DNA from: an uncultured Granulicella sp.
GTDB taxonomy: Bacteria > Acidobacteriota > Terriglobia > Terriglobales > Acidobacteriaceae
DNA: 64,000 nucleotides
Assembly: GCA_964282835.1 (NCBI GenBank)
Contig: OZ196157.1
Span: 60,600-124,599 of the forward strand
Direction: 5' to 3'
Shown here: one piece after another, positions 2,912-46,942 of the stretch
How the letters are laid out: each line of letters begins with the position of its first letter
How positions within the stretch are numbered: the first letter of the stretch is position 1
Translations under genes and position numbers: made by a program
The notes under the pieces: generated by a model
Told to the model about the DNA's origin: nothing
What the model saw: the letters and a program-made list of their open reading frames with translations, nothing else
Database searches by the model: none

Positions 2912-3961
2912 TTATGAAGAGGGCGCGCTGAGGTGAGACTGAGCCGTAAGATTTGCCTCGCGCTCATCCACCCAATAATGGGCTTGGGCGGAAAGCCTCT
3001 CTTTCATGCCCTGGGACAAAAGATGTTCATGACGGCCAAGCTGATAGCTGATCCATTTGCTCACGTTGCGCAGAGCTGCCTTCGGCAGAAGGGTCCACTG
3101 GTGTTCCATAAGGTAGCGCGCCTCTGACACCACAAACTTTCGTCCTTCTCCGCCCGCTTCCCCAAATGCCATCAGCAGCCAGTGTTCCCTTTGGTGATGG
3201 ACTCCAATATCGAAGTAACGCGAGAACTCTTGAGGAATCGTAAGAGAATGCGAATGAATTGCCGTCGCCTCGGCCTGATACGCCACTTTCCAGCCGGTCA
3301 TCAACATCCGCGCGGCCACCGTCACCTCCTCCGACACGATGGTGTTTCGCGGAAACCCCCCAACCTCCGTGAGCGCTGACCTGCGGTAAGCAGCAAAGCT
3401 GTTGGAGAAAAAAGCAGCCCTGAACCCGAGTTGCTTGCGGCTTTCGAAGCTACGCACCTCAGATGCGGCAGGGTAGTTGAACAACCGTGCATGCCTCTCG
3501 ATCGGGTCTGCTCCTGGCCGTGGAAGCTGGCGTCCGTAGCTGGCTCCCACCTCTGGCTGCGCAAACGGGGCAAGCAAATCTCTGAACGCGGTGGTGCCGG
3601 AAGGCACTGCGTCCTGGGTAAGGTAAATAAGAATCTCGGCTCTCGGGAGACATTCCGCGGCAAACTGTCGTGTAGCTCCATGCCGGAAGCTCTCGTGCGG
3701 GATCGTCTTCAACTGGTATCCGGCTCGTTCCACCAATTGCCGGGTACTATCGGTTGAGGAAGAGTCGATAATGAGCACCTGATCAGATGTGACGCCCTGC
3801 TGTTGCAAGGCAGTCTGCATGGCGTACCAGTGACGGCTTGCGTTATAAGTGGGAATGACAACCGCGGCCCGCAAGAGTAAGCTCTGTTGTGCTCTTGAAG
3901 TAGCGACCTCTTTTGCCACGCCATCGTCATGCTTCATACTCTGCAGATTCTCGACCCACAT
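2912..3961 (-). CDS. Family-2 glycosyltransferase (rhamnosyltransferase-like)
   Basis: AAVVIPTYNASRHW, LIIDSSSTDST and YLTQDA match the GT-A/GT2 motif set. The start could instead be the internal Met at about 3934. Confidence 0.75.
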   Translation of the reverse strand: MWVENLQSMKHDDGVAKEVATSRAQQSLLLRAAVVIPTYNASRHWYAMQTALQQQGVTSDQVLIIDSSSTDSTRQLVERAGYQLKTIPHESFRHGATRQFAAECLPRAEILIYLTQDAVPSGTTAFRDLLAPFAQPEVGASYGRQLPRPGADPIERHARLFNYPAASEVRSFESRKQLGFRAAFFSNSFAAYRRSALTEVGGFPRNTIVSEEVTVAARMLMTGWKVAYQAEATAIHSHSLTIPQEFSRYFDIGVHHQREHWLLMAFGEAGGEGRKFVVSEARYLMEHQWTLLPKAALRNVSKWISYQLGRHEHLLSQGMKERLSAQAHYWVDEREANLTAQSHLSAPSS

Positions 3962-4319
3962 ATATATCGGACCCTGTTGTTAAGCTGCTAAATTGCGAAA
4001 TTGCAAAGCCTCAAAAACTTAGGATAACGTTACTATAGTTTACTGTTTTAGGCGATTCTTTGAAAGATTGCTCGTTTTGAACCGGAGAAAAGCTGAATCG
4101 TTATCGGAGACATCGAGCGATAAAGCTGATGTCGTACGATGTCGCTTTTGCGGCCATTTCCGTCCAGCAGTCATCGACTTCGTTTCTGGCGCTTTTCAAT
4201 CTACGCCAGAGGGTGGCCGGCGTTTCTGGAAGTTCTTCAGCGTCAGCATTCGCAAACCCCAACATCCGCCACGCCTGCTTCAAAGCCATCCACGTATGCG
4301 CTGGTGTGTGAAGAAGGGT

Positions 4320-4700
4320 TAGGGGATCTAGCCGGAGTGACGCCAATGCAAGTTGCGGCGTATGTTAGGCAGCTCGGCCGTACGTACTCGCAAACCTGTC
4401 AAGCAACACCTCGCCGCACCCGCCGAGTTCAAGCGCGAGCTCATCCGCGAACGAAACCTTGACGGCCTACCGCAGCTCGCGCTCGAGGCCGCACCGGAGG
4501 ATGGCTGCCGAAGCTCTCACCCAAAGAGATCGAGACGATCCGCGCCCTGTTAAATCCTTGGAAATCCAGTGGTCGAGATCGTCGCCCGCTTCCATATCGC
4601 GCGCTCAAACCTCTCCTGCGCCATCCTCAAGCCTGCCTGTTGACCGCACAGGCCCTCTAAGCGGCTTTGAAGTTCCTCAGCGTACGTGAATTTTCTCTCT
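4320..4700 (+). pseudogene. Tyrosine recombinase/integrase remnant (frameshifted N-terminal and core-binding part)
   Basis: Pieces lie in three + frames: GVTPMQVAAYVRQLGRTYS, KPVKQHLAAPAEF, LPKLSPKEIETIRALL and SGRDRRPL. They resemble the SAM-like N-domain of phage-type integrases (..VKQHLAALR.., ..LS.EE...LL.., G.RDRAL). No intact ORF remains. Confidence 0.3.
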
Positions 4701-4789
4701 TGAACCGTCCCCAAGTACGCGAAAACCTTGCCTTGAAAAGCATCGGCCAGCATCAGCGCTGGCCAATATGGAAATGCTACGCTGCAAAG

Positions 4790-5540
4790 CGGGTACGGTA
4801 GCTCTCTGGCGGCGCAGTCCTCCTGCCAGTTGACGGTGACCTATACCTCGGAACTATCCGGCACGGATCATCTGACCGTGACGGTGCAGAACGGAACCGC
4901 CGGTGTGAACGTAACCACCCAGGTTGTGGTCACGGTGGGACCGAACGAACCGGTGACCCCGAAGATCGCCGACCTCGGCAGCGTGTCGATCGCAGGGGTA
5001 GGCGCAGCACGGCGACCCTGAACTTCACTCTTTATGGTCCGGTCTATAACACAACGCAGCAGTATATCGGCCTCTCCATCAGCGGGGCCAATGCGGGAGA
5101 TTTACCCGGTACCTTCGCCTGCAACACAGATAGCCGTCTCTCCGCAAACAACGATTCAGACGGATTATGCAAGTTGGTACGAGGCCTGGGGCGCGGGTAC
5201 CGTGCCCTACCTTCAACTGTCCAAGACACCACCGCCGAGCGCTTTTGCCGAGCCTTCGATTCTCCCCAGTTACGGGCGCGGCGTCTGGTAGATCTGGCCA
5301 ACGGCGCGATCCAAGAGCGAAGATACGATCTGCCGAAGCGAATCTTAAACAAGCGCAGGCGCTGGACGACAACGCGCGCGACCTTTGGGGAAGATTTAGC
5401 CGTGGACATGCACCACGGCGATCAGAGGGAGGCAATGCGTCTCTACGCAAAAGAAAGCGGAGTTGCATCCGGGAGCCGACTTCGCCTATCGCAATCTGGC
5501 CCGTCTCGAAGACGTGGCTCGGTCTTGCTTCCCGCGTCCA
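4790..5540 (+). pseudogene. Coding debris: Ig-like/choice-of-anchor-type fragment followed by a TPR-like fragment
   Basis: SCQLTVTYTSELSGTDHLTVTVQNGTAGVNVTTQVVVTVG and TATLNFTLYGPVYNTTQQYIGLSISGANAGDLPGTFACNT lie in different frames. They are followed by AEANLKQAQALDDNARDLW and GDQREAMRLYAK..ADFAYRNLARLEDV. There are multiple frame breaks and no start. Confidence 0.25.
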
Positions 5541-5697
5541 GGTTGACCCACCGGAATCTGCAACGCTTCCGCGACGAGTCGTCACGACGGACTCGAACGC
5601 CAGCCGGCTGGCGAACGTGGAATGTCCTCGACAATGTGGGAACCGGCGTGATCGCCGCAGCCACATCCGCCTTATTCCTTCACCGCTTAGTCCAGCT

Positions 5698-8600
5698 TCA
5701 CTCCAAGCCAGTGACGTCTATGATTGCGAGGCTGAGATTACGCACCCGGACGATGGGCTGCGTGTTGTTGCTAAGTGAGGAGAATGCGGAGAGGTCGAAG
5801 TAGAGGCAACCCCCCAAGCGCGAAGGTGAATCTGTCGCGAACCAGTTCGCGACCTCGCCGGCTACGTTCGCGATGTAAATGTCGGCCCGCGTCACCGGGC
5901 CGGTGTTCGCAGTGAGGCTGGTCTGCCAACTCGCTGGGATCTGGAAATCCGACGCAGGATAGAGCAGCACGGGCATCTCAATTGCTGGCAGGGCGGCCGT
6001 TTCGGCGAGCCGGTAGGCGTAGCGCACTTCAAGCTTCACGATCTGGGTCTTGGCCGGGCTGTCCGCAAAGAAGGTCGAAAAGAGAGCGGTCAAGTGACCA
6101 TTCAGGGTGCGCTTCTCGGTCGTCCCGCTGGGGACCTGCGCCACATCGATGGTTGCGGCAGTATCGAGCAACGGTGTGAGCTTATTGCGGAACTGCACCT
6201 CGGGCGTAGTGTAGATGAAGGGTCTGCGAGTCGGGTTCGCCGTACCCACGAGGTCTGCGTTGCGTGTGATCTGGATGCCCGACCAGGCGTTCTGGTACTG
6301 GGTGACGTCAAGCTGAGCAATCTCCGCGGTACGCTGCGGGATGAGTTGCGCTTCGTCCCAGCCGAGGTAGAGATCCTGGCCGGGCTGGGGATTGATGCGC
6401 TTATAAAGCCAAGCCTTGCGCTCGATGGTGGGCGCGGCATCTCCCATGCGGTGTGCGGTGGCGAGCAGTCCGGCACGGACATCCTCGTGCGCGTTGCCGC
6501 GCTGCCGGCCGCGAATGCTTTGCTGCAGCAACTCGCGCGACGCGCTGGCGTCCGGATCGGTCGGTTCGGCGGTGAAGCCGTCGAAGAGTATGCCCGGAGC
6601 CGCGATCCCTTTGGGGAGCGGAACGGTGTAGGCGATGACGACGCGCAGCCGCATGATTTCATCAACGGAGCCGCTGCTCACCGTCACTGCATCTTCAAGG
6701 ACCGAGAACGGCACGTCCTCCTTGGTGGCCGTAAGCAGCGCGTCCTCGGCACCGGCCTGGCGCGCGGTCCACAGCTTCCATTGCGCGGCAAGGTTGCCGA
6801 GCAGGAAGCCAAGTGCGCTCAAGGCGTTGCGCGACCGCACGAAGTCACCAGCAGTCGTCGCCGTAGCTACGTGGATGCCGAGCAGGTCCCTGGCAAAAAC
6901 GGCTTGCAGGTCCGGGAGAACGAAGTTAAGCCGCGCCAGCAGGACGAAGAGGTCGGGCTCTTCGACTGTGAAAGCAGAGAGCTGCGCCGTCTGCGGCACG
7001 TTGAAGCGCACCACAGCGTCGATGCGGTTCTGCAGGGCGTGCACCTGCGCGTAGAAGAAGCGGAAAGCCCATTGCTTGGCGGCCTTGAGGTTGGCGGTCT
7101 GGTCGGTGCCGATCGGCGTAGGAACGAAATCCTGGTTGAGCAACGTCGGCGCGGCGGGGTACGCCCGCAGCGGAATGGGGATTTCCACCGCGATCGACGA
7201 CTCGCCGGTGGTCAAAGCGAGCGGCGCGGGCGGGTCGATGAAGTTGAGGCAGGAGGATGCCTCATAGCCATCCATGGCGGCCAGCGCTTCAACTGCATGC
7301 TCGATGTGCGTGGGCCGATACTGGAACGGCACCTTGAAGCTGGACTGCTGGCTCGCGTCGCGAGCAGCGAAGGTAAACGTCAGCAGCGGGTTTGTGGGTT
7401 CGAGCGGAATCTTGAACGAACTGGCCGTATAGTCCGCAGCGTTTTCGACCTGGGTCGGGTCGACGGGGTTGCCGTAGTAGTGTGGCGGTATGGCCGGGGC
7501 GGTTGTGGCCGGGGCCGCAACCTGCAGTTCGTACTGGACGACGGCATCGATAGCGTATGCATTGGCCAGCTTGATGAGCAGCTGCTGCTTCAGCTTGTCG
7601 CGGGCAGCCTGGAAGTTCGCAGGTTTGCTCGTCGTGGTGATCGCCGGCTCGCTCAGGATGTTGGTCATGCCGGTAACGATCGCGTCGGCCAACAGGCGCT
7701 TCGCGAGCAGGATCTGCGCCAGGTACGACGTGCCGCCGATGGAATCGACCAGAAAGGCCGGCACGGCATATTGCGGCTGCAGCACAGTGTCGATCGTCGC
7801 CAGCGCATTAGCCGCCCACAGGTCTAGATCGATGCCGGTATAGGTCTGGGTCTGGTCTGGCGTGGCGCTCAGCCCCTGCTCCGGGGTAAAGGTGTAGAGC
7901 GTGACGTTCGGCCGATTTTGCAACTCGGTAGAAAGCGGCGCAACCGCAAAAAAGATGGCGGGATTCTTGATGGTGACGGCATATGGCTCGGTAGCGGTCT
8001 TGCCCAGGCGTACCGCCCAAAGGGTATCGGCTCCTCCCTGGCCGCCGAGGTCCGCACGCGGCGTCCCGGAGGCCAGCCGCAGCGAGGACGAGGCCTGCTG
8101 GAAGGCGGCTTCGAAGCTGCGCGTGTACTCATCGAGCGTGTAGCCGGTGGTCTGGTTGGGCTTGCTCAGGCGCGGCGCAATGACGCTTTCCGCCAGGCGC
8201 GAGGCGGCGTTGTCGCGGAACTCCGGCAAGACGCCGCTGATCTCGCGCTCCAGGCGTACGGAAACCAGGATCTCGACAATCGTCTGGCCGGCGGCTGGCG
8301 TGATGGAGCGCGCGAGATCGACGTTCTGCGGCAGGTTGGTAGCCGGAGGGGTGGCTTTGGTGCGGTAGACCGTATCCACATAGCGCCAGGCGGCGAGCAC
8401 ATAGGCGACGATGGCCGTGCGTTCGGCGGCCGTCACGCGCACGGGCGTATCGCCGGCGAGCGTACAGACGGTCGAAACATGCAGCAAGTCGCTGCCGTCG
8501 CGCACGGTCTGGACCATCTGGTAGTAGAGCAGGGCGAACACCTGGCGGTCGGCCTCGGCGTTGGGCAGCCAGCCCTGGTCGCCGGCGGACTGCGGGACGT

Positions 8601-14890: not shown

Positions 14891-17017
14891 ATGCGAGCTT
14901 TACTCCGTTCGACTCTCTTCTCTGCAGTCTCCTGTGCGGCTCTACTGCTTTCCGGCTGCTCGAACAGTTTCGACCCCACGCAGGGCGATAACCCGGAAAC
15001 ATCGACCATGAGCATGCAGGGCGAAGTGTTTGGCGGCTTCTTTCCCGTAAGCGGTGCCCGCGTATTCCTTTTCTCGCCCGGCACAAGCGGCGTGGGCGGC
15101 GCGTCGACCTCGCTGATCAGCGCAAGCACGACCGGATCCGCGATCGACAGCACGAGCGGCTCGATTACGTATGGCGCACGCTATGTGCTGACGGACTCCA
15201 AGGGCGGGTTCACCTTCACGTCGACCTGCACGTCGGGTCGCTACGTTTACCTCTATGCCTCGGGCGGCGTGGCCACCACGGGCGGCGCGAATAATCCCCA
15301 GATCGGCCTGATGTCGGTCGTCGGCGAGTGCCCGGGTACGGACACAGTCGACGCGACGCCCTATGTCCGCATCACGGAAAACACGACGGTGGCGGCAGCC
15401 TATGCGCTGGCCGGTTTTGCGACCGACCCGGGCCACATCAGCTATACCGGCACCTCGCTCGGCCTGGTGGGGCTTGGCAATGCGTTCGGCACGGCGACCA
15501 ATCTGTTCAACCAGCTGGTGGCGGTGGACAGCGCCTCATCTATCAACGGGTTCCCCGCCGTTACGACCACCCCGAGCAGCACGGGCACGATCCCGCAGAC
15601 GCTGCTGAATACGTTGTCGAACATCCTGGTGGCGTGCGTCAACTCAGGCAACAGCGCTTCTGCGACGACTACGGGCTGCGACAACCTGCGGAAGTATGCC
15701 ACCAGCGATGGCGCGGTCGGCACGGGGTCGACGGCTCCTGCCACAGGCAGCTTTAGTGCGGACGCACCGGCCGATACGGCCACGGCGATGATCAATATCG
15801 CGCACCATCCGTTCGCGAATCTCACGAGTCTCTTTAACCTGCAGGGTACCGGCGCCGGCGAGGTGTACAAACCGGCTCTCGGGGCCGCACCCACGAGCTT
15901 TATGGTCGAGGTAAGTTATACGGGCGGCGGGGTGAGCTCCGACACGGCCCAGACCAACAATCACCGCATCGCCATCGACGGCGTGGGGAACGTCTGGTTC
16001 CCAAATACGTTTAACTCAAATGTCAGCAAGTTCAGCCCCCTGGGCATCCCGCTTTCGGGCAACAATGGTTTTACATCGACGAACGGCAGCTGCCCACTTG
16101 GCGGTCCTGGCGGCAGCGGCTCCAGCACCTATGTCGGCCCGATCGCCATCGATCTTTCCGGCAATGCCTGGATCGGGTTTACCGACGCTTCAAATTCCAT
16201 CTGCGAACTCGATCCGACAGGGGGCACAGTCTTCGCGTCATCGCCGGGCGCCGCAGACGGGACTCAAAACTATTTTGGAGTGATCGATATTGCCTTCGAC
16301 TCGGCAGGAAATGCCTGGGCGGCCGACAGCGCCGCCAACTCAGAGAGCGGCGCGCTCTACGAATACAGTGGTACAAACCACACGCTGCTGGTCACGGAAA
16401 ATGGCAACAGCCAAGCGATTTCCTACGGGGTGGCCATTGACGCGCCCAACTCGAACTCGGGACATACGGGTGATATCTGGGTTGCGGATGCCGCTGCAAC
16501 TTACGACAGTGTTTTCAACGCCACAGGCGGCACGGCAAGCTTTTCTCCTGCGTCGGCGGGATCCATTTCCTATTCGACGGGACTCGCCATCGACGCCAGC
16601 GGCAACGTGTGGAATATGTCATCCAGCAGTAACTTTCCCGTTGGAGGGTATCTCAGTAAGACGAACGCGACGGGAACCTCGGGGACGTCCTACACGTTTC
16701 CTTCGATCGACAACGGATTCGCAATCGCGATTGATGGCGCGGGGAATATCTGGATCAGCAACGATGACGAGGGGAACTACATCGATATCGCGGAAGTGAG
16801 CAATAGCGGAGCCTTGCTCACGCCCGCCGCCGGCTTTATTCCTTCCGGTCCGGCAACAGTGGGGGGAGCCCGCTCGCTCGCCATCGACGGCTCCGGGAAT
16901 GTCTGGTATCCGATGGCAGGCGTTGCCCAGTTGAGAGAGTTGGTGGGTGCCGCCGTTCCGGTCGCGACTCCCATTGCCTACGGGACGGCGAACAACAAAC
17001 TAGGTGCGCGGCCGTAA
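14891..17017 (+). CDS. NHL-repeat beta-propeller lipoprotein (paralogue B)
   Basis: The ATG at 14891 gives MRALLRSTLFSAVSCAALLLSGCS (signal peptide plus lipobox); the longer listed ORF from 14822 would abut the divergent gene. Blades GNVWFPN, GNAWIGF, GNAWAADS, GDIWVADA, GNVWNMSS, GNIWISNDD, GNVWYPMAG. The central segment is collinear with paralogue A. Confidence 0.75.
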   Translation: MRALLRSTLFSAVSCAALLLSGCSNSFDPTQGDNPETSTMSMQGEVFGGFFPVSGARVFLFSPGTSGVGGASTSLISASTTGSAIDSTSGSITYGARYVLTDSKGGFTFTSTCTSGRYVYLYASGGVATTGGANNPQIGLMSVVGECPGTDTVDATPYVRITENTTVAAAYALAGFATDPGHISYTGTSLGLVGLGNAFGTATNLFNQLVAVDSASSINGFPAVTTTPSSTGTIPQTLLNTLSNILVACVNSGNSASATTTGCDNLRKYATSDGAVGTGSTAPATGSFSADAPADTATAMINIAHHPFANLTSLFNLQGTGAGEVYKPALGAAPTSFMVEVSYTGGGVSSDTAQTNNHRIAIDGVGNVWFPNTFNSNVSKFSPLGIPLSGNNGFTSTNGSCPLGGPGGSGSSTYVGPIAIDLSGNAWIGFTDASNSICELDPTGGTVFASSPGAADGTQNYFGVIDIAFDSAGNAWAADSAANSESGALYEYSGTNHTLLVTENGNSQAISYGVAIDAPNSNSGHTGDIWVADAAATYDSVFNATGGTASFSPASAGSISYSTGLAIDASGNVWNMSSSSNFPVGGYLSKTNATGTSGTSYTFPSIDNGFAIAIDGAGNIWISNDDEGNYIDIAEVSNSGALLTPAAGFIPSGPATVGGARSLAIDGSGNVWYPMAGVAQLRELVGAAVPVATPIAYGTANNKLGARP

Positions 17018-17037
17018 ACGCTTTCGAGCCAAGGAAA

Positions 17038-17058
17038 TGGCCCCTAGTCTGGGGGCCA
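17038..17058. terminator. Hairpin between convergent genes (possible bidirectional terminator)
   Basis: TGGCCCC-tagtctg-GGGGCCA forms a 7-bp stem in the 70-nt gap between the NHL gene stop (17017) and the tail-collar gene stop (17088). There is no strong U-tract. Confidence 0.35.
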
Positions 17059-17087
17059 CTCCGTTGGACAAATGGCAGCACGGGCGT

Positions 17088-17639
17088 TTACTGGCGCGGT
17101 GGGAAGAGGCCCTGAACGGCAATGCAATACTGCAAGGCCAGATAGGGTGACTGGTTGCTATGTGGTTGGCTGCCGCCTGCCACTCCGGCTTCTGCGGCGG
17201 CCATGGTGACGGCGCTGGAGGATTGAGTAGCCGGGCTGGCATAGACCGGAGGAGCGGGCTGGCGGATTCCTGTGCTCGGCCCAGCGGAAAGATATGACGT
17301 GGGCGAGGGTAGCGTATTGGGAACACCCGGGGACCCGGCGGGCATGGTGTGGACGTGAGCGGGCATCTGCTGGAGCGTGAGCGTCACATTCGTGGTGCCG
17401 ACCGTGACTCCCATTGGGTAATTGGAACCCCCGGTCAGTTGTCCCTGGCCGAGCGCGGCGGCGCCGCTCAGGTTTGGCAGGGCGAAGGTCGTTCTGCCGT
17501 CTCCTCCGAACTGAGTGCCGAGCAAGGAATACAAGGCTGAAAATTGCGAAATGGCCATGACCGCGCCGTTGCAGGCGGCCCAGCCTTGCGGCACGAAAGT
17601 ACAGGCGAACAAACGAATTTCTCCAAGGAACGGATCCAT
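17088..17639 (-). CDS. Phage tail-collar domain protein (MdpB-like), copy 3 of 3
   Basis: MDPFLGEIRLFACTFVPQGWAACNG...FSALYSLLGTQFGGDGRTTFALPNLSG and the C-terminal GGSQPHSNQSPYLALQYCIAVQGLFP match the collar-domain signature. Confidence 0.8.
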   Translation of the reverse strand: MDPFLGEIRLFACTFVPQGWAACNGAVMAISQFSALYSLLGTQFGGDGRTTFALPNLSGAAALGQGQLTGGSNYPMGVTVGTTNVTLTLQQMPAHVHTMPAGSPGVPNTLPSPTSYLSAGPSTGIRQPAPPVYASPATQSSSAVTMAAAEAGVAGGSQPHSNQSPYLALQYCIAVQGLFPPRQ

Positions 17640-17662
17640 CTGGAACTCCTTACCTTCTCGGT

Positions 17663-18181
17663 TTAGTTGCGGGTGGGAAAGATGCCGACGATCGCAATGC
17701 AGTATTGCACCGCAAGGTACGGCTGGAGATTCGAGTGGGGCTGGCTGCCACCTGAACTCGAAGAGCCGCTGTCGAGCATGGTGTTGGCCGAGGTGGCATA
17801 GAGTGGGTAGGTCGACGGCGCCGCCGGGTAATTAGCCTGCGGCGAGCCGGTGAGATTGGTCGTCGTGGACTGATTCGACGCCGCCACGGGATGATTGTGC
17901 ATGGGAATTTGCGTGGTCAGGAGGGTTACATTCTCTGTGCCCGCCTGCTGCCCCGGCGTGTAGTTGCCCCACGCGGAGTTCCCCGTGCCGACAGGAACCC
18001 GGCCCTGCAGGTTGGGAAGTCCGAAGGTGGTCGAGCCATTGCCGCCGTAGGTGGTTCCGAGCAGCGAAAACAAAGCCTGATACTGGTTGACCGCAAGCAG
18101 TTGACCGTTGCACGGCAGCCAGCCTTTGGGCACGAGGCCGAAGGCGAATACCGAGATCTGACTCATATAAGGTGTGCTCAT
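17663..18181 (-). CDS. Phage tail-collar domain protein (MdpB-like), copy 2 of 3
   Basis: ISVFAFGLVPKGWLPCNGQLLAVNQYQALFSLLGTTYGGNGSTTFGLPNLQG and GGSQPHSNLQPYLAVQYCIAIVGIFP. Lies 23 nt upstream of copy 3. Confidence 0.8.
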   Translation of the reverse strand: MSTPYMSQISVFAFGLVPKGWLPCNGQLLAVNQYQALFSLLGTTYGGNGSTTFGLPNLQGRVPVGTGNSAWGNYTPGQQAGTENVTLLTTQIPMHNHPVAASNQSTTTNLTGSPQANYPAAPSTYPLYATSANTMLDSGSSSSGGSQPHSNLQPYLAVQYCIAIVGIFPTRN

Positions 18182-18192
18182 GGTGTCTTCTC

Positions 18193-18702
18193 CTAGCCTT
18201 GGCTCGGGTAAATGCCCACGAGGGCAATGATGTAGTTGACTACAAGCGAGGGCATGCGATTCTCATGCGCCTGGTTTCCACCGACGGGGGTAAGCAGCGG
18301 CGCGGTGATGAGCGTGCCGGAGGGGCCGAACTGCGCCAGGCTCGACGCGCTGAAGACATTGCCGGCCGGACTCTGTTGCCCTCCCATGGCGTTTTGCGCC
18401 GCGATGGTGTGATTGTGCGACGGCAGCTGCGAGGAGCTCAGCGTAACGGACTCCGAGCCCGCGGCCTGACCCGCATAGTAAGGAGAAAGCCCCGGGCCAT
18501 TCCCGGCGTTGACGGCCATACGGCCATTCAGGTTAGGAAGGGCGAAGGTTTGGACGCCATCGCCCCCGTAGGTGGTCCCGATGAGGTTGAACAAGGTCGC
18601 ATATTGATCGATGGGAAGAAATTGTCCGTTGCACAAGGCCCACCCCGGGGGTGGGAAGTTAAAGCCGGCGGCACGTATTTCGCCGATGAATGGATCTGCC
18701 AT
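18193..18702 (-). CDS. Phage tail-collar domain protein (MdpB-like), copy 1 of 3
   Basis: MADPFIGEIRAAGFNFPPPGWALCNGQFLPIDQYATLFNLIGTTYGGDGVQTFALPNLNG and GGNQAHENRMPSLVVNYIIALVGIYP. AGGAGA precedes the ATG. Lies 11 nt upstream of copy 2. Confidence 0.8.
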   Translation of the reverse strand: MADPFIGEIRAAGFNFPPPGWALCNGQFLPIDQYATLFNLIGTTYGGDGVQTFALPNLNGRMAVNAGNGPGLSPYYAGQAAGSESVTLSSSQLPSHNHTIAAQNAMGGQQSPAGNVFSASSLAQFGPSGTLITAPLLTPVGGNQAHENRMPSLVVNYIIALVGIYPSQG

Positions 18703-18865
18703 GAAACTCTCCTGTATTTCTCTGGATTAGGTACAAAGAGCCCTGCCCGCATCTCTGTCGTACGGGTAAGAGACTGCTCTACAAAGTGAACCAAGCTGAG
18801 AGAGAAACGACGCTGCGGCCAAGCTTACACACCCACCGAACAAGTCGGCCAGCAAATTCGCGTCA

Positions 18866-19384
18866 CTACTCGGAGCGGCCCTGGCGGTTTGGCTTTCGCG
18901 TCCAATGCATGGTGATGCTGTGACCATCGCCTCCCGTGAGGGTGAAACCCATGCGCGCGTAAAGCCGTTGAGCAGGGTTATCGACTCGGACGGAGAGCGT
19001 GACATCCAGTTGCTGCGCGCCGGCTTGCTCGCACACACCTTGCAGCAGGAATGTGCCAATGCCCATTCCGCGATACGCTGTAAGCAAAGCGACGTCAACG
19101 ATATGCAACGCGGCGAGATCCCGTGCGACGAGCAGCCGGCCGACACACCGATCTCCACGCAAAACAATGTTGTCGACCGCGTCGGGGAACTGGATGGCGT
19201 AGCCCCTGCTTTGGGCTCGATGCTGCATCCTGAGTATCTGGGTAAGCGCAGAGGACGGAAGAGCGAGCGGCGCAAACTCAGCGCCGCGCGCCTCCTCAAA
19301 GAGCGTGTAAAGGAAAGAGCCGTCTTCGACCGTCGCGGGCCGGAGAGAGATCGTCAAGGAAGCATGTAGTTGGGAAAGGTTCAC
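18866..19384 (-). CDS. GNAT-family N-acetyltransferase
   Basis: LLTAYRGMGIGTFLLQGVCEQA (acetyl-CoA pocket R-x-x-G-x-G) and VDNPAQRLYARMGF. The GTG start overlaps the stop of the upstream pseudogene frame (GTGA). Confidence 0.75.
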   Translation of the reverse strand: MNLSQLHASLTISLRPATVEDGSFLYTLFEEARGAEFAPLALPSSALTQILRMQHRAQSRGYAIQFPDAVDNIVLRGDRCVGRLLVARDLAALHIVDVALLTAYRGMGIGTFLLQGVCEQAGAQQLDVTLSVRVDNPAQRLYARMGFTLTGGDGHSITMHWTRKPNRQGRSE

Positions 19385-20366
19385 GCGACATAGCTCCTGT
19401 GACTTTGACTCGACATTGCGCGGAATGAAGTCCTGACCGGCTTGCTACTGCCGGTCGAGACCTGCTGGGTAAACGTGCCGGCGGCCGTGAGCTCGGTGAT
19501 CGAGCTGTTGCCGGAGTTGGCGTCCAGATGTTGCCGGGCACGTCGATGGCTGCCGGCGCGCTGATGGTGCCGTTGCCCGCAAACGGCGAGCCGGTGTAGG
19601 GCGAACGTAACTGTTGAACGCGGAACCGAGCTGCCGCCGGCGTTGGCGACCCAGGCATTGCCGCCCTGGTCGATCGCGACCGCGGCCGGCGCATTCAGGC
19701 CGTTTCCCGTAAATGGCGAGTCGAAAGCGGCTTGCCCATCTGCGTGAGCACCGAGACCGAGTTGCCGCTTGAGTTCGCCACCCAGATATTGCCGGCGGCG
19801 TCGACCGTGGTCGAGGCAGGCTTGCTGAAGCCGGCTGCGGAGTAGGTAATGGCGAGCATCCAGTCGGCTGGTGCGGAAGTCAGCTGCGGCGCGAAGGGCG
19901 CCGACGGCGTGGTCGTGTTGTAGATCGCCGCCACGTTTAGGATCGGGTTATGCGCGATGCTGAGCGCGCCTGCACGGTGTCGGTTGGCGCCGTGCCGCCA
20001 GCTGAGGTCGCCAGGCTGAACAGCGTCCCGCATGCGGTGGAGTCGCCGGCGGTGCCGCCGGTCGAGTTGATGCACGCCGCAAGAATGTCTGCCAGGGTCA
20101 CAATCTCGCTCACAGGCCCGACTGCGCCCGCCGGAAGCGCGCTGCCCATAGCCGCGCCCGTCCCCACGTTGACCAGCTTGTTTACCGACGCGAACGCGTG
20201 CGTCAGCCCGGTCGTGTTGGCCGCAGACGAGCCCAGGGCGGCGATGCTGCTCATAAACGGTGCGCGCGCGAACACGCTGCCAACCGTCGTAATCTCGTTC
20301 ATGCCTAAGCATGGGGTTTTCAGCACCTGACAACCTTTGCAATTACCCGTCTCGAGATCAATGTTT
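19381..20366 (-). pseudogene. 5'-truncated, multiply frameshifted NHL-lipoprotein paralogue (paralogue C)
   Basis: Collinear with paralogues A and B but split over at least four frames: GNCKGCQVLKTPCLGMNEITTVGSVFARAPF...NTTGLTHAFASVNKL...ACINSTGGTAGDSTACGTLF / ..ADWMLAITYSAAGFSKPASTTVDAAGNIWVANSSGNSVSVL / SPFTGNGLNAPAAVAIDQGGNAWVANAGGSS / GNIW..ANSGNSSITELTAAGTF. The signal peptide and N-terminal domain are missing. Confidence 0.7.
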
Positions 20367-20439
20367 GGCTAACGATTGGGTTGCGGAGACGCCACCTAGC
20401 TCTGACTCCAGCCGCTTAGAGTACTTAAAGTTCAATTCT

Positions 20440-28753: not shown

Positions 28754-31700
28754 TTGAAAATTTCTCGAAAGGCTATTTGCGCTTCGACCGCCATCCCGTT
28801 CGCCCTTTGCGTTTCGCTTCACGCTCAGATCGATCGCGCCAACCTGAAGGGCACCTTGACCGACCGGTCGGGCGCGCTGGTCTCAGGAGCAAGCGTCTCC
28901 GTGCTCTTTCCACAGACAGGCTTTCAGCGCTCGGTCGTATCGTCGGCCGCCGGCGACTACGTCTTTACCGGGCTTCCGCTGGGCACGTGCACCCTGACCG
29001 TGACCGCGCCGGGATTTGCCGCCGCACGGGTGGACAACATTGTGCTTGAGGTTGGCGATGTGCGGACGGCGAACCTGCAGCTTGGCCTTGAAGGCATCAC
29101 GCAGACCGTTGCGGTCGACGCTTCGAGCGTGGATCTCGATCAGGATAGCGCCGCGACCGGCGGTGTGATCTCGCAGCAGCAGGTAGAAAACCTGCCGATC
29201 AATGGCCGCAACTGGGCTGCCCTGCAGCTCCTGGTTCCGGGCGCAATCAACACCGGCGCGGGCAACGAGCTTACCATCCGATTTGCCGGGCGCGGCATCG
29301 ACGATAACCGGGTGACCTTCGACGGCCTGGACGCGAGCGGCATCCTGCGTCAGGCCCAAAAGCTCGATCTGCGGCTTCAGTTCTCGTCCGATTCGATCGG
29401 CGAGTTTCGCGCCCAATCCACCGTCTACTCGGCCCAGTTCGGCGGGACCACCGGCGGCCAGATCGACGTGGTTTCACGAACGGGGACCAACCGCTTCCAC
29501 GGCAGCGTCTATGAGTTCCTGCGCAACGATGTACTCAATGCACGTGCACTGTTTTCGACCAGCCAGTTGCCCCTGCGGCTGAACCAGTTTGGTGCGAGTG
29601 CCGGCGGTCCCATCTTCCGCGACCACACCTTCTTCTTCGCTAACTACGAAGGGCTGCGCCAAACGCTTGGCCAGCCCCTGGTAGGCTTCGTTCCCAGCCC
29701 GGCGTACCGCGCGGCGACGATTGCGAAAACAACGGCGGTTGCATCCCTGGTCAACGCTTACCCCATGGGTCAGACCCCCACGGCGAATGCAAGTGTGTAC
29801 CAGTTCAACGGCTCAGGCCGAGCGATCCAGAACGAAGACTATGGACTCGTTCGCATCGATCAAACCTTCAACGCGCGCACCTCCGCCTTTGTGCGGATCA
29901 ACGTGGACCAGGGCCGGCTGTTGACGCCAAATGGCGATGCAACCGGCTACATCGGCGATTCGCTGGCAACGCAGGACGATCCCAAGAACGGCGTGATCGC
30001 GCTCCAGCATTCCTTTCGCCCCACCGTGCTCAACGACCTGAAATTCGGCATTAATCGAACGCCTTACTACGCTCAGAACGTCAGCCTGGCTCCGTTCCAA
30101 CTTGCGGTCACGGGCTTTTCCACCCTGCACGATACCTTGCAGCAGACCCAGGGCTCGATGGCCTACTCGCTTGTCGACACACTCAACCTTTCCTTCGGCA
30201 AGCAGAGCATCACGACCGGCGGCGGGTTTCGCCGAGTCGAGTTGAACCTGAACAGTACCCAGGAGACGCAGTATGCCGCGACCAGCACGGCCACGCTCGC
30301 GGCCAATACCCTGAGCGGCGCGACCTTTCTGGCCGCAATCCCCAACGAAGACGCGCGCAAGACCGAGTTCAACCTCTTCTTCCAGGACCAGTACAAGATA
30401 CGGGCGAACGTCCTGCTAAGCCTGGGGCTGCGCTACGACAACTTCGGCGCCTTCGATGGCGTGAACGGGCGTGACCTGCCGTTCGATCCGCTCACCTGCC
30501 CTGCAGGGTACTGCCAGGCAGGCATCCCGTTCTACAAGACCGACCCAGGCTCGGTTCAACCTCGCTTCGCGGTAACCTGGACGCCCGCAACACAGCACGG
30601 CGACACCGTCATTCGGGCCGGCTATGGACTTTACGCGGGTGAAGCGCAGCTTGGCGACCTCATCTCGCCCCTGTCCAACCTGGGCCAGCGGCTCTCCTTT
30701 ACAGCGGCGCAACTGGGTACGCCAAGCTATCCTGTGTCGCCTGTGTTGACCTCGCAGGCGCTGGTTTCGAACGCGCCAAAGGGCTTGTATCGCGGACGGG
30801 TGAACGAGCAGGTGAGCGAGTTCGGCATATCCGTCGAGCAACGCTTTCCGTTCCAGATCCTGAGCAGCATCGGGTACATCGGCAGCCATGGGGCGCACCT
30901 GCCGGAGCACACTGTGCTGAACGTGCTCGATCCCGCGACCAGGCTCGCGCCACTGCCGGCGTTCGGACTGATCGACTACAAGCTGACCGGAAGCAACAGC
31001 AACTACTCCGGGCTGGTCACGTCGCTTGAACGCCAGTTCTCCCGAGGACTATCATTCGGGGCAACGTACCTCTGGTCGCACTCGCTCGACGATGGCGCCA
31101 ACGTAGGCAACAACACGGGTGCCGAAACCGACTTCCCGCAGAATGTCGCATGCCGCCTCTGCGAACGCGCGAGCAGCGACCAGGACATCCGCTCGTCGTT
31201 CACCGCCAATACTGTGTATGAGCTGCCCGTGGGCTACGGCCGGGGCTACCTCAACCATGGTGTTGTGGGTCAGTTGCTTGGCGGCTTTCAGCTGAGCGGT
31301 ATCGCGGTAGCCCGCACCGGCCTGCCGGTCAACGTCACGGTGGCGCGCACCGCGGCCAGCCTGCCCGACGGCAATACGTTGTCGCCGCAGCGTCCGAACC
31401 TGGTCCCGGGCGTCTCGATCGTGCCGCCCGCAGGTCGCACACCGGGCAACTGGATTAATGCAGCTGCCTTCAGCCTCCCCGCCAACGGGGCCTTCGGCAA
31501 CGCGCCGCGCAATCTCGTCCGTGCGCCCGGGACGTGGCAGGTCGACGGCTCGCTCCAGAAGGCGCTGGTCACCTCGGACCGGTTCGCCCTCAACTTTCGC
31601 GGCGATGCGTTCAATCTTTTCAACCGTGCGCAATACGGAGCGCCCTCCGGGGTGTTCAACACCACCAGCTTCGGTCAGATCACGACGCAGATCAATCAGG

Positions 31701-31759
31701 GTGCGACCGGCACGGCGACGCAACGGGTCATCCAGGTAAGCCTTCGCCTGACCTACTGA
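28754..31759 (+). CDS. TonB-dependent receptor with N-terminal carboxypeptidase-regulatory-like domain
   Basis: Signal peptide (TTG start). GTLTDRSGALVSGASVSVLFPQTGFQRSVVSSAAGDYVFTGLPLGTCTLTVTAPGF, plug-like ENLPINGRNW, a long beta-rich barrel, and a terminal ...RVIQVSLRLTY. Confidence 0.85.
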   Translation: MKISRKAICASTAIPFALCVSLHAQIDRANLKGTLTDRSGALVSGASVSVLFPQTGFQRSVVSSAAGDYVFTGLPLGTCTLTVTAPGFAAARVDNIVLEVGDVRTANLQLGLEGITQTVAVDASSVDLDQDSAATGGVISQQQVENLPINGRNWAALQLLVPGAINTGAGNELTIRFAGRGIDDNRVTFDGLDASGILRQAQKLDLRLQFSSDSIGEFRAQSTVYSAQFGGTTGGQIDVVSRTGTNRFHGSVYEFLRNDVLNARALFSTSQLPLRLNQFGASAGGPIFRDHTFFFANYEGLRQTLGQPLVGFVPSPAYRAATIAKTTAVASLVNAYPMGQTPTANASVYQFNGSGRAIQNEDYGLVRIDQTFNARTSAFVRINVDQGRLLTPNGDATGYIGDSLATQDDPKNGVIALQHSFRPTVLNDLKFGINRTPYYAQNVSLAPFQLAVTGFSTLHDTLQQTQGSMAYSLVDTLNLSFGKQSITTGGGFRRVELNLNSTQETQYAATSTATLAANTLSGATFLAAIPNEDARKTEFNLFFQDQYKIRANVLLSLGLRYDNFGAFDGVNGRDLPFDPLTCPAGYCQAGIPFYKTDPGSVQPRFAVTWTPATQHGDTVIRAGYGLYAGEAQLGDLISPLSNLGQRLSFTAAQLGTPSYPVSPVLTSQALVSNAPKGLYRGRVNEQVSEFGISVEQRFPFQILSSIGYIGSHGAHLPEHTVLNVLDPATRLAPLPAFGLIDYKLTGSNSNYSGLVTSLERQFSRGLSFGATYLWSHSLDDGANVGNNTGAETDFPQNVACRLCERASSDQDIRSSFTANTVYELPVGYGRGYLNHGVVGQLLGGFQLSGIAVARTGLPVNVTVARTAASLPDGNTLSPQRPNLVPGVSIVPPAGRTPGNWINAAAFSLPANGAFGNAPRNLVRAPGTWQVDGSLQKALVTSDRFALNFRGDAFNLFNRAQYGAPSGVFNTTSFGQITTQINQGATGTATQRVIQVSLRLTY

Positions 31760-43354: not shown

Positions 43355-46300
43355 TTAGTAGTTCAACTTAAGAGCGAACTGGATCACGCGTGGGCCGGCG
43401 CTGCTGCTGTTGATGACCCCGAGCGTTGAAGGTACCAGCACGTTGTTATTTGGGTTGTTGAAGTTGGCGAAGTTGAAGACATTGAACAACTCCGAGCGGA
43501 ATTCGAGGTTCGTCTTCTCGACAAAGGGAAAGCGCTTGATGACGCTGAAATCCACGTTCCGCTGACCCGGTCCGCGTAACAGATTGCGGCCCGAGGTACC
43601 ATACGGCGGTGTGTTGGTGCAGGAACCGGCAAAAGCGCTGGTATTGAAGTAGTGGTTGAGCCGAGCCTCCGCCGAGCCGGAGTAGCCGGGCGTCTGGCCG
43701 GTGACAAGGTCGGCCCGATTGTAGAGCGCGGAACCGGAGATGCAGTCTACCGAGAACGGTAGTCCCGTCTGGAAAACAGAGATAATGGAAGCGCCCCAGC
43801 CGTTGGCGGCCTCGGACAGAACGTGTGAGTCGCCGTTGTATGCTCGGCCAAGATCATAGATGCCGCTGATCACGATGCGCTGCGTGCGGTCGAAATCCGA
43901 CGCGCCGTATTGCTGCTGAAGGTTGTCCTGGTCTCCGGGCAGGGCCGCGAGTTCGTTTTCAGGCGCGCCGGAGTTGTTGTCGAGCGACTTTGAGTAGGTG
44001 TAAGCCACAAGCGCCTGGAGATGTTTATCGAAGCGTTTGGTAAGGCTGGCCTGCAGCGAGTTGTAATTCGAAGCGGCATTACTCTGGGCCAGATCAAGCC
44101 CATTCAGAGCCTTGTTGCTCGAAAATCCGGAGTTCTGGAGCACCGCCGGAGAATTCGTCTGCCCAAGCGTACTCACGTTGATAAGGTGCGTGCCCTTTGC
44201 GCCGGCATAACCAACCTCGAATAAGTAGTTGCGCAAAGGCTCGTATTGCACGTTCAAGTTGTATTGGTACGTGTAAGGCGAGGTGAAGTTCTTATCGACA
44301 TAGAGGCCGCTGATGGGCGTTTGTGTGCCCGCGAGCGGAGCCCCAAAGAAATAGAACGGGATGGGCGATGGTACGGTTGCGGGCAGAGGAAATGTCAGAT
44401 TGGCTAGGTTGGGGAACGTGGCCGCAAAATTACCCAGGCCCACTCCTACAATGTCATACGGGTAGTCGAAGATCTGTAGGTTCGCAACGCGTGAAGAGAA
44501 GCGGTCGAAGTAGATACCGAAGCCGCCGCGAACGACGAGATTATCCTTGCCGGTCGGTTTGAGGCTGAAGCCTACGCGCGGAGCCACGTTGTATTTATCA
44601 GGATTGAGCGTCTGGTTGCCGCTCAGCAGGTTGAAGCCGTTGTTGGGTGCACCGCATGGCGCAGCTGATGTGCAAGCCGTGGTGTGATTGGCAAGAAAGA
44701 CATTCTCATCGAAGTTGACCAGGCGCCCGCGAATGTCGCTGAAACCACCAAAGCGTTGGAAACGCAGGCCCGCGTTGACGGTAAGATTCGGCGTTACACG
44801 GATGTCATCCTGAAGGAAAGCATCGGCATCTTTGGCGCGAAAGCCTCGGTCGGGCACACCGTTGCCGAGCAGACCGGTAAGCGGCGCAGTGGGAGTGCCA
44901 CCGCTTAGAAATTGCTGGAAGGTGTTGACCAGGATCTCGCCACGGCTGAAGAAATTGAAGGAGAAGTCCAGGCGCTGTACATAGAAGTCACCACCCACGC
45001 GAATATTCTGGCGCCCGTGCGTATAGGTGACGGTATCGGCGAACTGGAATGTGCCGGTCGTGCTGTGCTCATCGATCAGCGGCGCGGACCCTACGGTGAA
45101 GAGTCCATTTACCTGAATGGTGGCGAGCCCTGGGAAGCGTCCTCCGAGCGGGTTGCCGATGCCGACCTGCGCGTTGGTCAGAGGCTCCTGCGGAGCACTG
45201 TAAACTCTAACTCGATTGAAGCCGGCGTGAAAATCGTTGATGACGTTGGCGCTGAACAGGTGGGTTTCATCAATCGAGATAAGACGGTTGCGCAGGTAAA
45301 CGCTTGCGCCGAAACCAGGCGCCTGGAAGGGATTCGCACCCAGAAACGTCGTCACCCCCTGCAACTGGGGCGCGTTCGCAGAAAAGAAGTGTGCGGCGAG
45401 ATGATCCTTCGAGGTCAGGTTGTGATCGAGGTTTATGTCGAATTGTTCTTCACGAAAAGTGGAAAGTGCGCTGAGGGACGTAGAGCAGGTTGTTGTGCAA
45501 TTGATGCCGGAGGCGCTTGGAATCGCGAACTGCGCATTGGGCAGCGTCGCCTGAAGCAACGCAAGCGCAGTCGGGTTGATGGCGGCGACACCCAGGCCGG
45601 CGGCAAGGGCCGTCAGGGCGGCCGAGCTTCGGTTACTGGTCAGGCCGACCGGAATATTCAGCGTGGTCAGGCTGTTGTTCGGGTCGGCGCCGTTCTTTTC
45701 CCGCGTGCCCTGGTAAGCGAAAAAGAAAAAGGTTTTATCTTTGTAGATAGGACCGCCAATCGTTCCGCCAAATTGATTGCGGCGAAGCTCGGGGCGGACT
45801 CCGGGATGGTCTTGCTTGAAGAAGAAGTCGGTGGCGTTAAGGTCTTCGTTGCGGAAGAATTCGAAGGCTGTGCCATGGATTGCGTTGGTGCCGGACTTGG
45901 TGACCAAAGCGACGTTTCCACCCGTGTTCCTGCCCTGCGTGGCATCATAAAGCGCGGTCTGCACGATGAACTGCTGGATGGCATCCGGAGAGGGCACGGC
46001 GAGGTTAGGCGTGGAGTTAGTGCCGATCGAGTTAGCCTGGATGCCATCGATAACAACGTTATTCGAAGTGGCCTGCTGGCCCCCCACATTGATGTCCGCG
46101 TCCCCACGTCCGAGCGCCGTGTTGTTGGCGATGTTCGACGTGACGCCCGGGGAGAGTGAAAGCAGCTGCTCGAAATTTCTGGTGGGCAGGGGCAGATCAT
46201 GCACCTGGCGCTCATCGATGACCCGCCCGTTGGTCGCATCTTCCGTGTTGAGGAGAGGAGCCTCGGCCGTAACGGACACGGTGGTCGACGTACCGGCGAC

Positions 46301-46627: not shown

Positions 46628-46942
46628 ACTTTCCTCCAAACGTTGACGTTTCAACTGTGATCCACTCAGCACGATGTTGTGCGTCCAACGGGTAAGTACG
46701 CGCGTTGAAGCACCGTTCGACCGCTCTCCGGCGTTATGTAAGCTGCTGATGTAGAGAATTTGTGTACCCGTTCGCGATGATGTGGACCTGCTACCATCAA
46801 GCCGCCGCGTTATCCAAAATGTCTACTTGAGTCGCTTTAACCCTTACGATCCGCGCACCTCCGCAGCAGGTTGATGTGGCTCCTGGGCAAGATGGCGCCG
46901 GCAACTCCGCAGTGCCGGGTTGAACACCATTTGTCTAGGCAG

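Follow-up and report, generated by a model that had tools for sequence, protein, structure and literature searches.

Three shaft-less tail-collar genes beside a dedicated acetyltransferase in an uncultured Granulicella: a reduced member of a widespread phage-tip-derived cellular system

The tips of phage fibres carry trimeric domains that bind molecules on the surface of the host. In myoviruses (T4 gp12, the C-terminal domains of gp37 and gp10, and the fibre of cyanophage A-1(L); PDB 1ocy, 5iv5 and 8kec), these tips combine a Collar fold (Pfam PF07484), a metal-binding HxH motif, and a strand at the C-terminus that runs back to the collar. Free-standing Collar proteins have also been described in bacteria, namely RhiB, encoded by the quorum-sensing-regulated rhiABC(D) genes of Rhizobium leguminosarum, and MrpB of Microcystis. 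Both are single proteins of unknown function. MrpB is the source of the name ‘microcystin-dependent protein’ (COG4675), and MrpA, encoded in the same operon, is a prominent differentially accumulated spot in proteome comparisons. Proteins of COG4675 have been detected in soil metaproteomes (PMC5579227). In the virophage DSLV2, three Collar proteins form a 1:1:1 heterotrimer, as established by co-purification, native polyacrylamide gel electrophoresis and electron microscopy, and this heterotrimer, a fibre some 16 nm in length, binds to cells of cyanobacteria (J Virol 2025, PMC12724248). No other experimentally characterised Collar triplet was found in the literature. Here, we describe a triplet of Collar genes (A, B and C) at positions 17088–18702 of a 64,000-nucleotide (nt) stretch of DNA from an uncultured Granulicella sp. 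(GenBank assembly GCA_964282835.1, contig OZ196157.1, positions 60,600–124,599; this whole stretch is hereafter the window). Together with an adjacent gene for a GNAT-family N-acetyltransferase, the triplet represents, in reduced form, a cellular system that derives from phage tips and is widespread but uncharacterised.

The locus resembles each of the described systems in part. As described, DSLV2 shares with the window a set of three consecutive, co-oriented PF07484 genes that fall into position-specific lineages. It differs in being viral, as its genes lie beside capsid genes and its complex is proposed to sit on the capsid, whereas the window triplet lies in a bacterial chromosome. Nor has a GNAT, a DUF6916 protein or an adhesin, the partners discussed below, been reported for DSLV2. 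The products of rhiABC and mrpAB are alike in being free-standing bacterial Collar proteins of the same COG that are co-transcribed with partner genes. By description, however, each of these operons encodes one Collar protein, and the partners RhiA, RhiC, RhiD and MrpA are unrelated or without a Pfam domain. The operons are flanked by LuxI/LuxR genes or transposases, with no GNAT or DUF6916 protein described, and no LuxI/LuxR-type domain was found among the scanned neighbours of the window triplet. Unlike the myovirus fibres, the window proteins consist of the tip only (about 170 amino acids, aa), without a shaft and encoded by three genes rather than one. They also differ from such fibres in lying in a chromosome without any other virion gene, linked to a GNAT gene.

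The three genes are arranged in tandem, head to tail, on the minus strand. Gene A, at triplet position 1, spans 18702..18193 and encodes 169 aa; gene B, at position 2, spans 18181..17663 (172 aa); and gene C, at position 3, spans 17639..17088 (183 aa). The spacers are 11 nt between A and B and 23 nt between B and C, and an AGGAG Shine–Dalgarno sequence precedes the start codon of each gene. A first-pass annotation of the window, made from the sequence alone, had reported three tandem paralogues of these lengths and spacings with a tail-collar fold. The open reading frames (ORFs) confirm the arrangement, and the fold is confirmed by matches to the Pfam Collar model with E-values of 1.8e-25 (A), 1.6e-26 (B) and 2.1e-25 (C), corresponding to 89–92 bits at a cut-off of 24. 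Tail and tail-fibre families of PHROGs also match all three proteins (for example phrog_9116, with E-values of 1e-20 to 1e-31). Pairwise identity is 43% for A and B, 40% for A and C, and 47% for B and C. The proteins have in common their N-terminal 60–90 residues and a C-terminal GG[SN]Q.H.N..P.L motif, and they differ in a centre rich in G, S, T and P, where gene C has the longest insert. The earlier description of shared motifs around a divergent centre is therefore accurate except at the extreme N-terminus of gene B, whose first ten residues read MSTPYMSQIS in place of DPF.GEIR.

Inspection of the N-termini bore out a further remark of the same annotation, that none of the three proteins has a signal peptide; the Collar fold begins at residue 1–6. 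The sequences likewise begin at position 1–6 of the Collar model, and an N-terminal shaft or baseplate-attachment region is absent. Orthologous loci are present on two metagenomic contigs, L001 and L002, where the orthologues of gene B are 84% and 64% identical, respectively. Relative to these loci, the ratio of non-synonymous to synonymous substitution rates is 0.16–0.27 per gene (0.18–0.27 for A and 0.16–0.21 for C). Genes A, B and C are therefore under purifying selection and are working genes.

Structural comparison places the proteins with the myovirus tips. AlphaFold2 models were built for single chains. The model of gene B has a mean predicted local distance difference test (pLDDT) score of 77, with a confident collar (residues 1–90) and a head at about 60. 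Foldseek searches with this model recovered the cyanophage A-1(L) fibre (8kec, E = 9e-6) and T4 gp12 (E = 3e-4 to 9e-4). A family profile matched the same two structures (E = 2.6e-10 for 8kec and 3e-4 for gp12), and aligned both the HxH motif, which reads PSHQH in 8kec, and the C-terminal QPYLV strand. A match to Gp10_C was obtained for gene B only, at 20 bits, which is under the cut-off of 27. PDB 6ov6 (C24) was considered as a bacterial relative and rejected, as it is a prophage fibre tip. The HxH motif, which the first-pass annotation had left unmentioned, is kept in all three window proteins (PSHNHT, PMHNHP and PAHVHT), and both of its histidines are invariant across 110 relatives. The knob built by these proteins would be a shaft-less homologue of the receptor-binding tip of myovirus fibres, comprising collar and head, and it may be held together by a metal ion on the three-fold axis, coordinated by the invariant HxH motifs.

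Triplets of this kind are not confined to the Acidobacteriota. A scan of one genome per species recovered 80 loci with the closest relatives of gene B, and at least 10 phyla are represented among them. These loci come from Acidobacteriota, Alpha-, Beta- and Gammaproteobacteria, Bacteroidota, Actinomycetota, Chloroflexota, Bacillota, Verrucomicrobiota, Myxococcota, Eremiobacterota, and Cyanobacteriota, and plasmid and chromid records add Deinococcota. When the window and 82 related loci (L001–L082) are considered together, exactly three genes make up 78 of 96 tandem Collar runs, and two triplets are present at several loci. The median lengths of the encoded proteins are 170, 171.5 and 174 aa for positions 1, 2 and 3, and the median gaps are 15 and 13 nt. 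Beyond its own locus, a protein finds its best match at the same triplet position in 65, 62 and 68 of 78 cases (positions 1, 2 and 3, respectively), where about 26 would be expected by chance. For the window itself, the best matches of A and C are mostly position-1 and position-3 proteins, respectively, and those of B are a mixture of positions 1 and 2, which are the least separated groups. The differences in sequence between positions are subtle. A GRxPxH motif is found in positions 1 and 2 and not in position 3, and there is no clean diagnostic column that separates the triplet positions. The positional orthology and the prevalence of three-gene runs indicate that the triplication is ancient, and that the genes have been kept as distinct and ordered partners.

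The Collar family as a whole is far larger than this set, with 49,912 cluster representatives at E ≤ 1e-3 and 19,355 at E ≤ 1e-10 in an exhaustive HMMER search. In most cases, the Collar unit on viral contigs forms the C-terminus of a single long fibre protein (250–1700 aa), and stand-alone full-length triplets are rare. Such triplets are typical of bacterial genomes and plasmids. Two IMG/VR contigs have Collar triplets whose products, each 227 aa long, are extended at the N-terminus by about 25 aa (L097, 3509–5579; L099, 4742–6836), and these triplets adjoin genes for collagen-like fibre (PHROGs) or RCC1-like repeat proteins.

Collar units also occur as fusions. Three-stretch Collar proteins of 500–670 aa account for about 26 of 150 cluster representatives among the matches listed. 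Each of the 16 examined proved to be one continuous chain of three complete units, with linkers of 0–25 residues between them. As to the order of the units, the last is of the position-3 type in 9 of 16 fused proteins, and the first is of that type in only 1 of 20 parsed. In addition, giant proteins of 1083–4832 aa (P0174, P0198, P0193 and P0205) contain three, six or more Collar units amid fn3, HYDIN-type Ig, cadherin and matrixin domains. Examples include six Collar units with five fn3 domains, six with HYDIN-type Ig and cadherin domains, and three with matrixin and cadherin domains. By the gene-fusion argument, these proteins suggest that the three units make up one body, that this body works outside the cytoplasm, and that it is tied to large surface proteins.

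The first-pass annotation had proposed that the three subunits could build a heterotrimeric fibre. This idea, unproven for A, B and C themselves, is well supported by comparative evidence, that is, by the preponderance of three-gene runs, the positional orthology, the single-chain triples, and the virophage heterotrimer (PMC12724248). On this reading, A, B and C would each supply a different chain to a single trimeric knob with a mass of about 55 kDa. The alternative that survives best is that each gene produces a homotrimeric knob of its own, and that the locus holds a small ‘library’ of three knobs with differing specificities. The phage tips of the same fold (8kec and gp12) are homotrimeric, and neither the HxH motif nor the full fold has been lost from any of the three paralogues, so that each could trimerise alone. 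One of the three possible DSLV2 homotrimers was also fairly stable in simulation (PMC12724248). The copy number of such a library should vary, however, yet runs of exactly three are the rule. Against a library also stand the separate ancient orthologous groups of the three positions, the common single-chain proteins of exactly three units, and the homologous virophage triplet, which co-purifies 1:1:1. A set of three homotrimers is therefore improbable, and the heterotrimer is the form of the knob that is considered below.

The triplet was originally described as an orphan, a label that has to be dropped. The gene 163 nt upstream of gene A, on the same strand, encodes a GNAT N-acetyltransferase of 172 aa with a GTG start (18866..19384, minus strand; Pfam Acetyltransf_1/7/10), and this enzyme is a dedicated partner of the triplet and part of the system. 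The window protein belongs to a subfamily with the N-terminal signature LRP..D..FL..YASTR..ELA..PW...K.AFL.MQF.AQ, and it aligns over the MQFxAQ part with GNATs from triplet loci of many phyla. Orthologues from L001, L002 and a third related locus, L052, none of which was in the seed of the subfamily model, score E-values of 1e-42 to 1e-53 against it; the score of the window GNAT (1e-59) is high by construction, as its sequence was in the seed. Neighbour counts were taken from the 59 loci whose flanking sequence reached at least 3 kb on either side, and in 48 of these a GNAT of this subfamily lies within 3 kb of the triplet. The association also holds in reverse. In a scan that started from the GNAT subfamily, 56 of 80 mostly short metagenome contigs carry Collar ORFs, and where at least 2 kb was available on both flanks, Collar ORFs are present in 10 of 10 contigs and DUF6916 in 9 of 10. 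The substrate of the GNAT is probably some part of the complex, with the conserved N-termini of the subunits as one candidate.

The GNAT gene and gene A are separated by a conserved non-coding stretch (18703..18865, minus strand). It is nearly identical in L001, where its conservation exceeds that at synonymous sites of the genes, and it is partly kept in L002, as the blocks TTGTGTAAGCTT and CCGTACGACAGAGATGCGGG..GGGCTCTTTGTAC. No match to the sigma-70 consensus was found within it, and a scan for sigma-70 promoters and intrinsic terminators was uninformative. A structured RNA or riboswitch upstream of gene A was considered and rejected, given that there is no Rfam match and that the folding z-score is +0.79. 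The stretch is probably a promoter or operator together with the 5′ leader of the triplet.

Clustering of the neighbouring genes of the 80 loci recovered three recurrent partners: the GNAT (about 180 aa), a small DUF6916 protein (PF21880), and very large proteins. Within 3 kb of the triplet, the same 59 loci have a DUF6916 gene in 41 cases, both GNAT and DUF6916 in 40, an ORF of at least 800 aa in 46, and none of these features in 3. An ORF of at least 1000 aa adjoins the block in 25 of 49 loci, in 21 of them on the same strand. Such ORFs make up 2.4% of the background, and giant proteins are about 10-fold enriched beside triplets. Two annotated examples from cultured bacteria illustrate the arrangement. 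The megaplasmid of Ruegeria sp. TM1040 encodes an autotransporter, three ‘tail fiber proteins’, a hypothetical protein, a GNAT, and a DUF6916 protein, and Rhizobium bangladeshense p4 encodes an Ig-domain protein, three ‘tail fiber proteins’, a GNAT, and a DUF6916 protein. A literature search for DUF6916/PF21880, the TM1040 locus tags, and the combination of GNAT and triplet found nothing relevant, and NCBIfam has no model for either the triplet or DUF6916. The structural model of DUF6916 is a small beta-barrel, predicted with confidence (pLDDT 87).

The giant partners are heterogeneous, and the possibility that they form a single family was rejected, as they are joined only by shared repeat domains. 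In Paenibacillus they have SLH domains, in Bacteroidota SprB repeats and a sorting domain of the type IX secretion system, and in Ruegeria an autotransporter domain. Those of Proteobacteria contain He_PIG, Big_9 and cadherin repeats, and those of Acidobacteriota contain Laminin_G_3, DUF11 and Big_9 domains. By domain content, the giants are adhesin-like surface proteins, each with an anchoring or secretion device typical of its lineage. The gene set as a whole comprises a dedicated GNAT gene and three Collar genes, usually joined by genes for a DUF6916 beta-barrel protein and a giant surface protein. About ten triplet loci additionally carry genes for Sulfotransfer_3-like and Asp/Arg beta-hydroxylase-like proteins (L005, 5150–6397; L069, 7970–9238; L080, 8528–10357; and about seven others), a hint that some versions of the system may include further modification enzymes.

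Export signals are found on several components of the related loci. DUF6916 proteins occur in two forms, a commoner leaderless form of about 100 aa, and a form of 140–200 aa with a canonical twin-arginine leader, such as MKISRRKFVAAAPLAAGVLL...ALAQ. Leaders of this type, which direct proteins to the twin-arginine translocation (Tat) pathway, were detected in 27 of 150 DUF6916 ORFs (including L004, 8982–9431; L007, 5887–6336; L073, 8449–8928; L082, 8604–9014; and about 23 others). In four loci (L004, L007, L012 and L073), the ORF for the Tat form lies directly upstream of Collar gene 1, and many acidobacterial loci have genes for both forms next to each other, immediately upstream of the Collar genes. 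Tat leaders are also borne by a few atypical Collar proteins themselves, and 5 of the 16 single-chain triple fusions have a Sec signal peptide. One protein with two fused Collar units (P0013) ends in a PEP-CTERM-like tail, PTPGAIILGSLGVGLVGFLRRRRTL; it is encoded on one short metagenomic contig and could be an artefact. The tail suggests that exosortase-dependent surface sorting may occur in some relatives.

The Tat pathway exports folded, cofactor-loaded complexes, which would suit a metal-stapled trimer with leaderless subunits. Such export can proceed by hitch-hiking, as in hydrogenase-2 (HybO–HybC) and dimethyl sulphoxide reductase (DmsA–DmsB) of Escherichia coli, where one subunit carries the leader and its leaderless partners are co-exported. 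The position of a Tat-DUF6916 gene directly upstream of genes for three leaderless, predicted metal-binding subunits, as seen in many loci, offers an analogy. It differs from the established hitch-hiker pairs in that most DUF6916 genes encode leaderless proteins, and in that the window is without DUF6916. Where a Tat-DUF6916 gene does lie directly upstream, the folded, metal-loaded trimer probably crosses the membrane by hitch-hiking of this kind. Once outside the cytoplasm, the knob would most likely be a variable, lectin-like ligand-binding unit that works with large surface proteins. The earlier proposal that the triplet serves as a surface recognition device, rather than as part of a virion, thus finds support for the system in general in the enrichment of giant proteins, in the Collar units within giants, and in the Sec and Tat signals.

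A knob that remains in the cytoplasm has also been considered. As a mimic, it might co-assemble with the fibre tips of incoming phages and poison them, or it might have some other intracellular role together with the GNAT. Such a knob would agree with the leaderless state of the canonical subunits and with the greater frequency of the leaderless DUF6916 form. Tail-collar paralogues of Solibacter have, moreover, been reported to be under positive selection (PMC3174227), as would be expected in an arms race. However, the PADLOC 2.0 defence models match none of A, B, C, the GNAT, DUF6916, or the two NHL proteins that neighbour the triplet in the window. A cytoplasmic location would also leave unexplained the association with giant proteins, the Collar units in giants of extracellular type, and the Sec and Tat signals. 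An intracellular role is less likely still than a library of homotrimers, and extracytoplasmic binding remains the preferred reading.

In size and adjacency, the GNAT (about 175 aa) and its small DUF6916 partner (about 100 aa) resemble GNAT toxin–antitoxin pairs, and they occur as a pair in 40 of 48 GNAT-bearing loci. This could mean that the GNAT is a toxin, similar to the GNAT toxins that acetylate tRNA, that DUF6916 is its antidote, and that the Collar trimer targets the resulting bacteriocin-like weapon. Yet the window, L001, L002 and L052 all keep the GNAT without DUF6916, a state that would be intolerable if the enzyme were a toxin. Tat signals on some DUF6916 proteins would be odd for a cytoplasmic antidote, and searches of NCBIfam, PADLOC and Pfam gave no match to a toxin family. 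A toxin and antidote are accordingly very unlikely.

The first-pass annotation had noted the absence of phage and injection genes, and this was confirmed. Pfam scans covered about 45 larger ORFs over the 64 kb, and small ORFs only in part. The scanned ORFs include no gene for a capsid, sheath, tube, baseplate, tape-measure or lysis protein and none of a tailocin or injection system, and the 64 kb contain no tRNA genes, integrase features or Rfam matches. Nor were sheath, tube, baseplate, tape-measure or lysis genes found in the related loci L001, L002, L163 and L164. The least credible alternative, a leftover of a prophage or tailocin or a servant of a tail or injection cluster outside the window, can draw on the phage origin of the fold, on the ‘tail fiber protein’ label given by annotation pipelines, and on an inspection that covered only the 64-kb window out of a contig of 4.25 Mb, but it conflicts with the lack of phage, tRNA or integrase features in that window, with purifying selection, with the recurrence of the block in at least 10 phyla beside GNAT, DUF6916 and adhesins and without tail genes, and with the missing shaft or baseplate-attachment region, which sets these proteins apart from their viral homologues.

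On balance, the evidence leans towards a cellular module in which a metal-stapled heterotrimeric knob would bind ligands outside the cytoplasm in conjunction with large surface proteins, as part of a GNAT-linked system that spans phyla. The module would be vertically maintained, and would not be part of a virion or tailocin. A more complete version can be offered only tentatively. In it, a hitherto undescribed system of GNAT, three Collar proteins and DUF6916, present in many phyla, would produce a fast-evolving receptor-binding knob, heterotrimeric and phage-derived, that is assembled and loaded with metal in the cytoplasm, is exported in folded form through Tat-DUF6916 (or through Sec, if fused), and arms giant adhesins. 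The window would then represent a reduced form that is paired with NHL proteins.

Several observations weigh against the favoured interpretation. Homotrimers of A, B and C are compatible with the structural models, which are of single chains. The canonical triplet subunits, both in the window and in its relatives, have no signal peptide, and the proposed Tat export route has no visible carrier in the window. Searches of every reading frame of the 64 kb, and of L001, L002 and L052, found no match to DUF6916 (PF21880). The predicted DUF6916 fold has no significant match in PDB or BFVD, and its resemblance to the barrels of phage hubs is weak and is no evidence. Among the solved structures, the closest relatives of the GNAT are N-terminal acetyltransferases, matched weakly (E = 2e-4 to 3e-4). 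No giant adhesin adjoins the window triplet, whose neighbours are the two NHL lipoproteins of 616–731 aa. With regard to expression, there is no RNA run of the source organism, and transcription of the locus is represented by a single short permafrost metatranscriptome contig of 185 nt, which maps to 17766–17950 in gene B with 2 mismatches. Finally, the comparison set of 80 loci comprises those with the closest relatives of gene B, and the percentages given here describe that subfamily rather than all Collar proteins.

The NHL lipoproteins are the most conspicuous neighbours of the triplet in the window. Gene C is convergent with the gene for a 731-aa lipoprotein with NHL/SGL-like beta-propeller repeats (14822..17017, plus strand), which has the lipobox LLLSGC and weak matches to propeller models in Pfam. 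The adjoining gene, which is transcribed divergently from it, encodes a 616-aa NHL-repeat lipoprotein (12969..14819, minus strand; Pfam NHL, E = 6e-12) with the lipobox LALTGC. The two proteins are paralogues, with 27% identity and an E-value of 4e-24. Both L001 and L002 keep the block GNAT-A-B-C-(700-aa protein)-(NHL protein), and the genes outside this block differ. Orthologues of the 731-aa lipoprotein occupy the same place in these loci (737 aa in L001 and 697 aa in L002), and the 616-aa protein is likewise conserved in both. In L052, a homologue of the 731-aa lipoprotein is encoded within 6 kb of the triplet, though not adjacent to it, and no other triplet locus has one. The link that had been suggested between the triplet and the NHL propellers is therefore weak, being backed by synteny in the closest relatives and by no association across phyla. 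In the lineage of the window, the two NHL lipoproteins may be the surface partners of the knob, and they may represent lineage-specific partners outside the cross-phylum core.

Positions 12800–20400 are matched collinearly, at about 98% identity, by a 15-kb lichen-metagenome contig, with all indels outside the triplet and the GNAT gene. A very close relative of the source organism is therefore present in a lichen community. Upstream of the GNAT gene, NHL-repeat-like stretches are found in at least two reading frames of positions 19385–20400 (minus strand), for example AAGNIWVANSSGNSV and IDQGGNAWVANAGGSSV, and the lichen contig, 98% identical, has small indels in this region. It is probably a frameshifted NHL pseudogene or the product of a sequencing error.

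The ORF of at least 1000 aa that lies nearest to the triplet, 4.3 kb away, encodes a 2367-aa megaprotein (5698–12801, minus strand) with one clear LysM domain at residues 1096–1139. It has no signal peptide, no repeats, including those of adhesin type, and no Pfam match besides LysM. A phmmer search of the ORFs of the window and of the related loci examined found no homologue at other triplet loci, and the megaprotein is absent from L001 and L002 at the orthologous locus. The proposal that the triplet works with this megaprotein is unsupported, and the protein was rejected as a giant partner for lack of a homologue at triplet loci, including L001 and L002.

By Pfam, the scanned ORFs of the window are ordinary chromosomal genes of an acidobacterium-like kind. 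They include polysaccharide genes at the left end, two-component systems, TetR regulators, dehydrogenases, and UPF0182. Two outer-membrane proteins of the TonB-dependent-receptor type, with CarboxypepD_reg and OMP_b-brl_4 domains, are encoded at 28754–31759 (plus strand, 1001 aa) and 43355–46672 (minus strand, 1105 aa). Between a glycosyltransferase gene and the end of the megaprotein gene, about 1.7 kb (3961–5698) have a lower G+C content (0.55–0.58) and no convincing gene.

Proteins of the Collar family are extremely common and are present in soil, water and plant-associated bacteria. They are currently annotated just as ‘tail fiber protein’ or ‘microcystin-dependent protein’, and genome tools can misread them as prophage remnants. 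The fixed triplet, the dedicated GNAT, the DUF6916 partner of most other loci, the links and fusions to adhesins, and the Sec and Tat signals on relatives together provide a testable hypothesis, namely that phage receptor-binding hardware has been reused for bacterial surface recognition. For DUF6916 (PF21880), they also provide a first functional context. A programmable heterotrimeric binder, if that is what the knob is, could be of practical interest as a small and stable binding scaffold. If the complete version of the system is true, giant adhesins would thereby be armed to recognise surfaces, polysaccharides or other cells.

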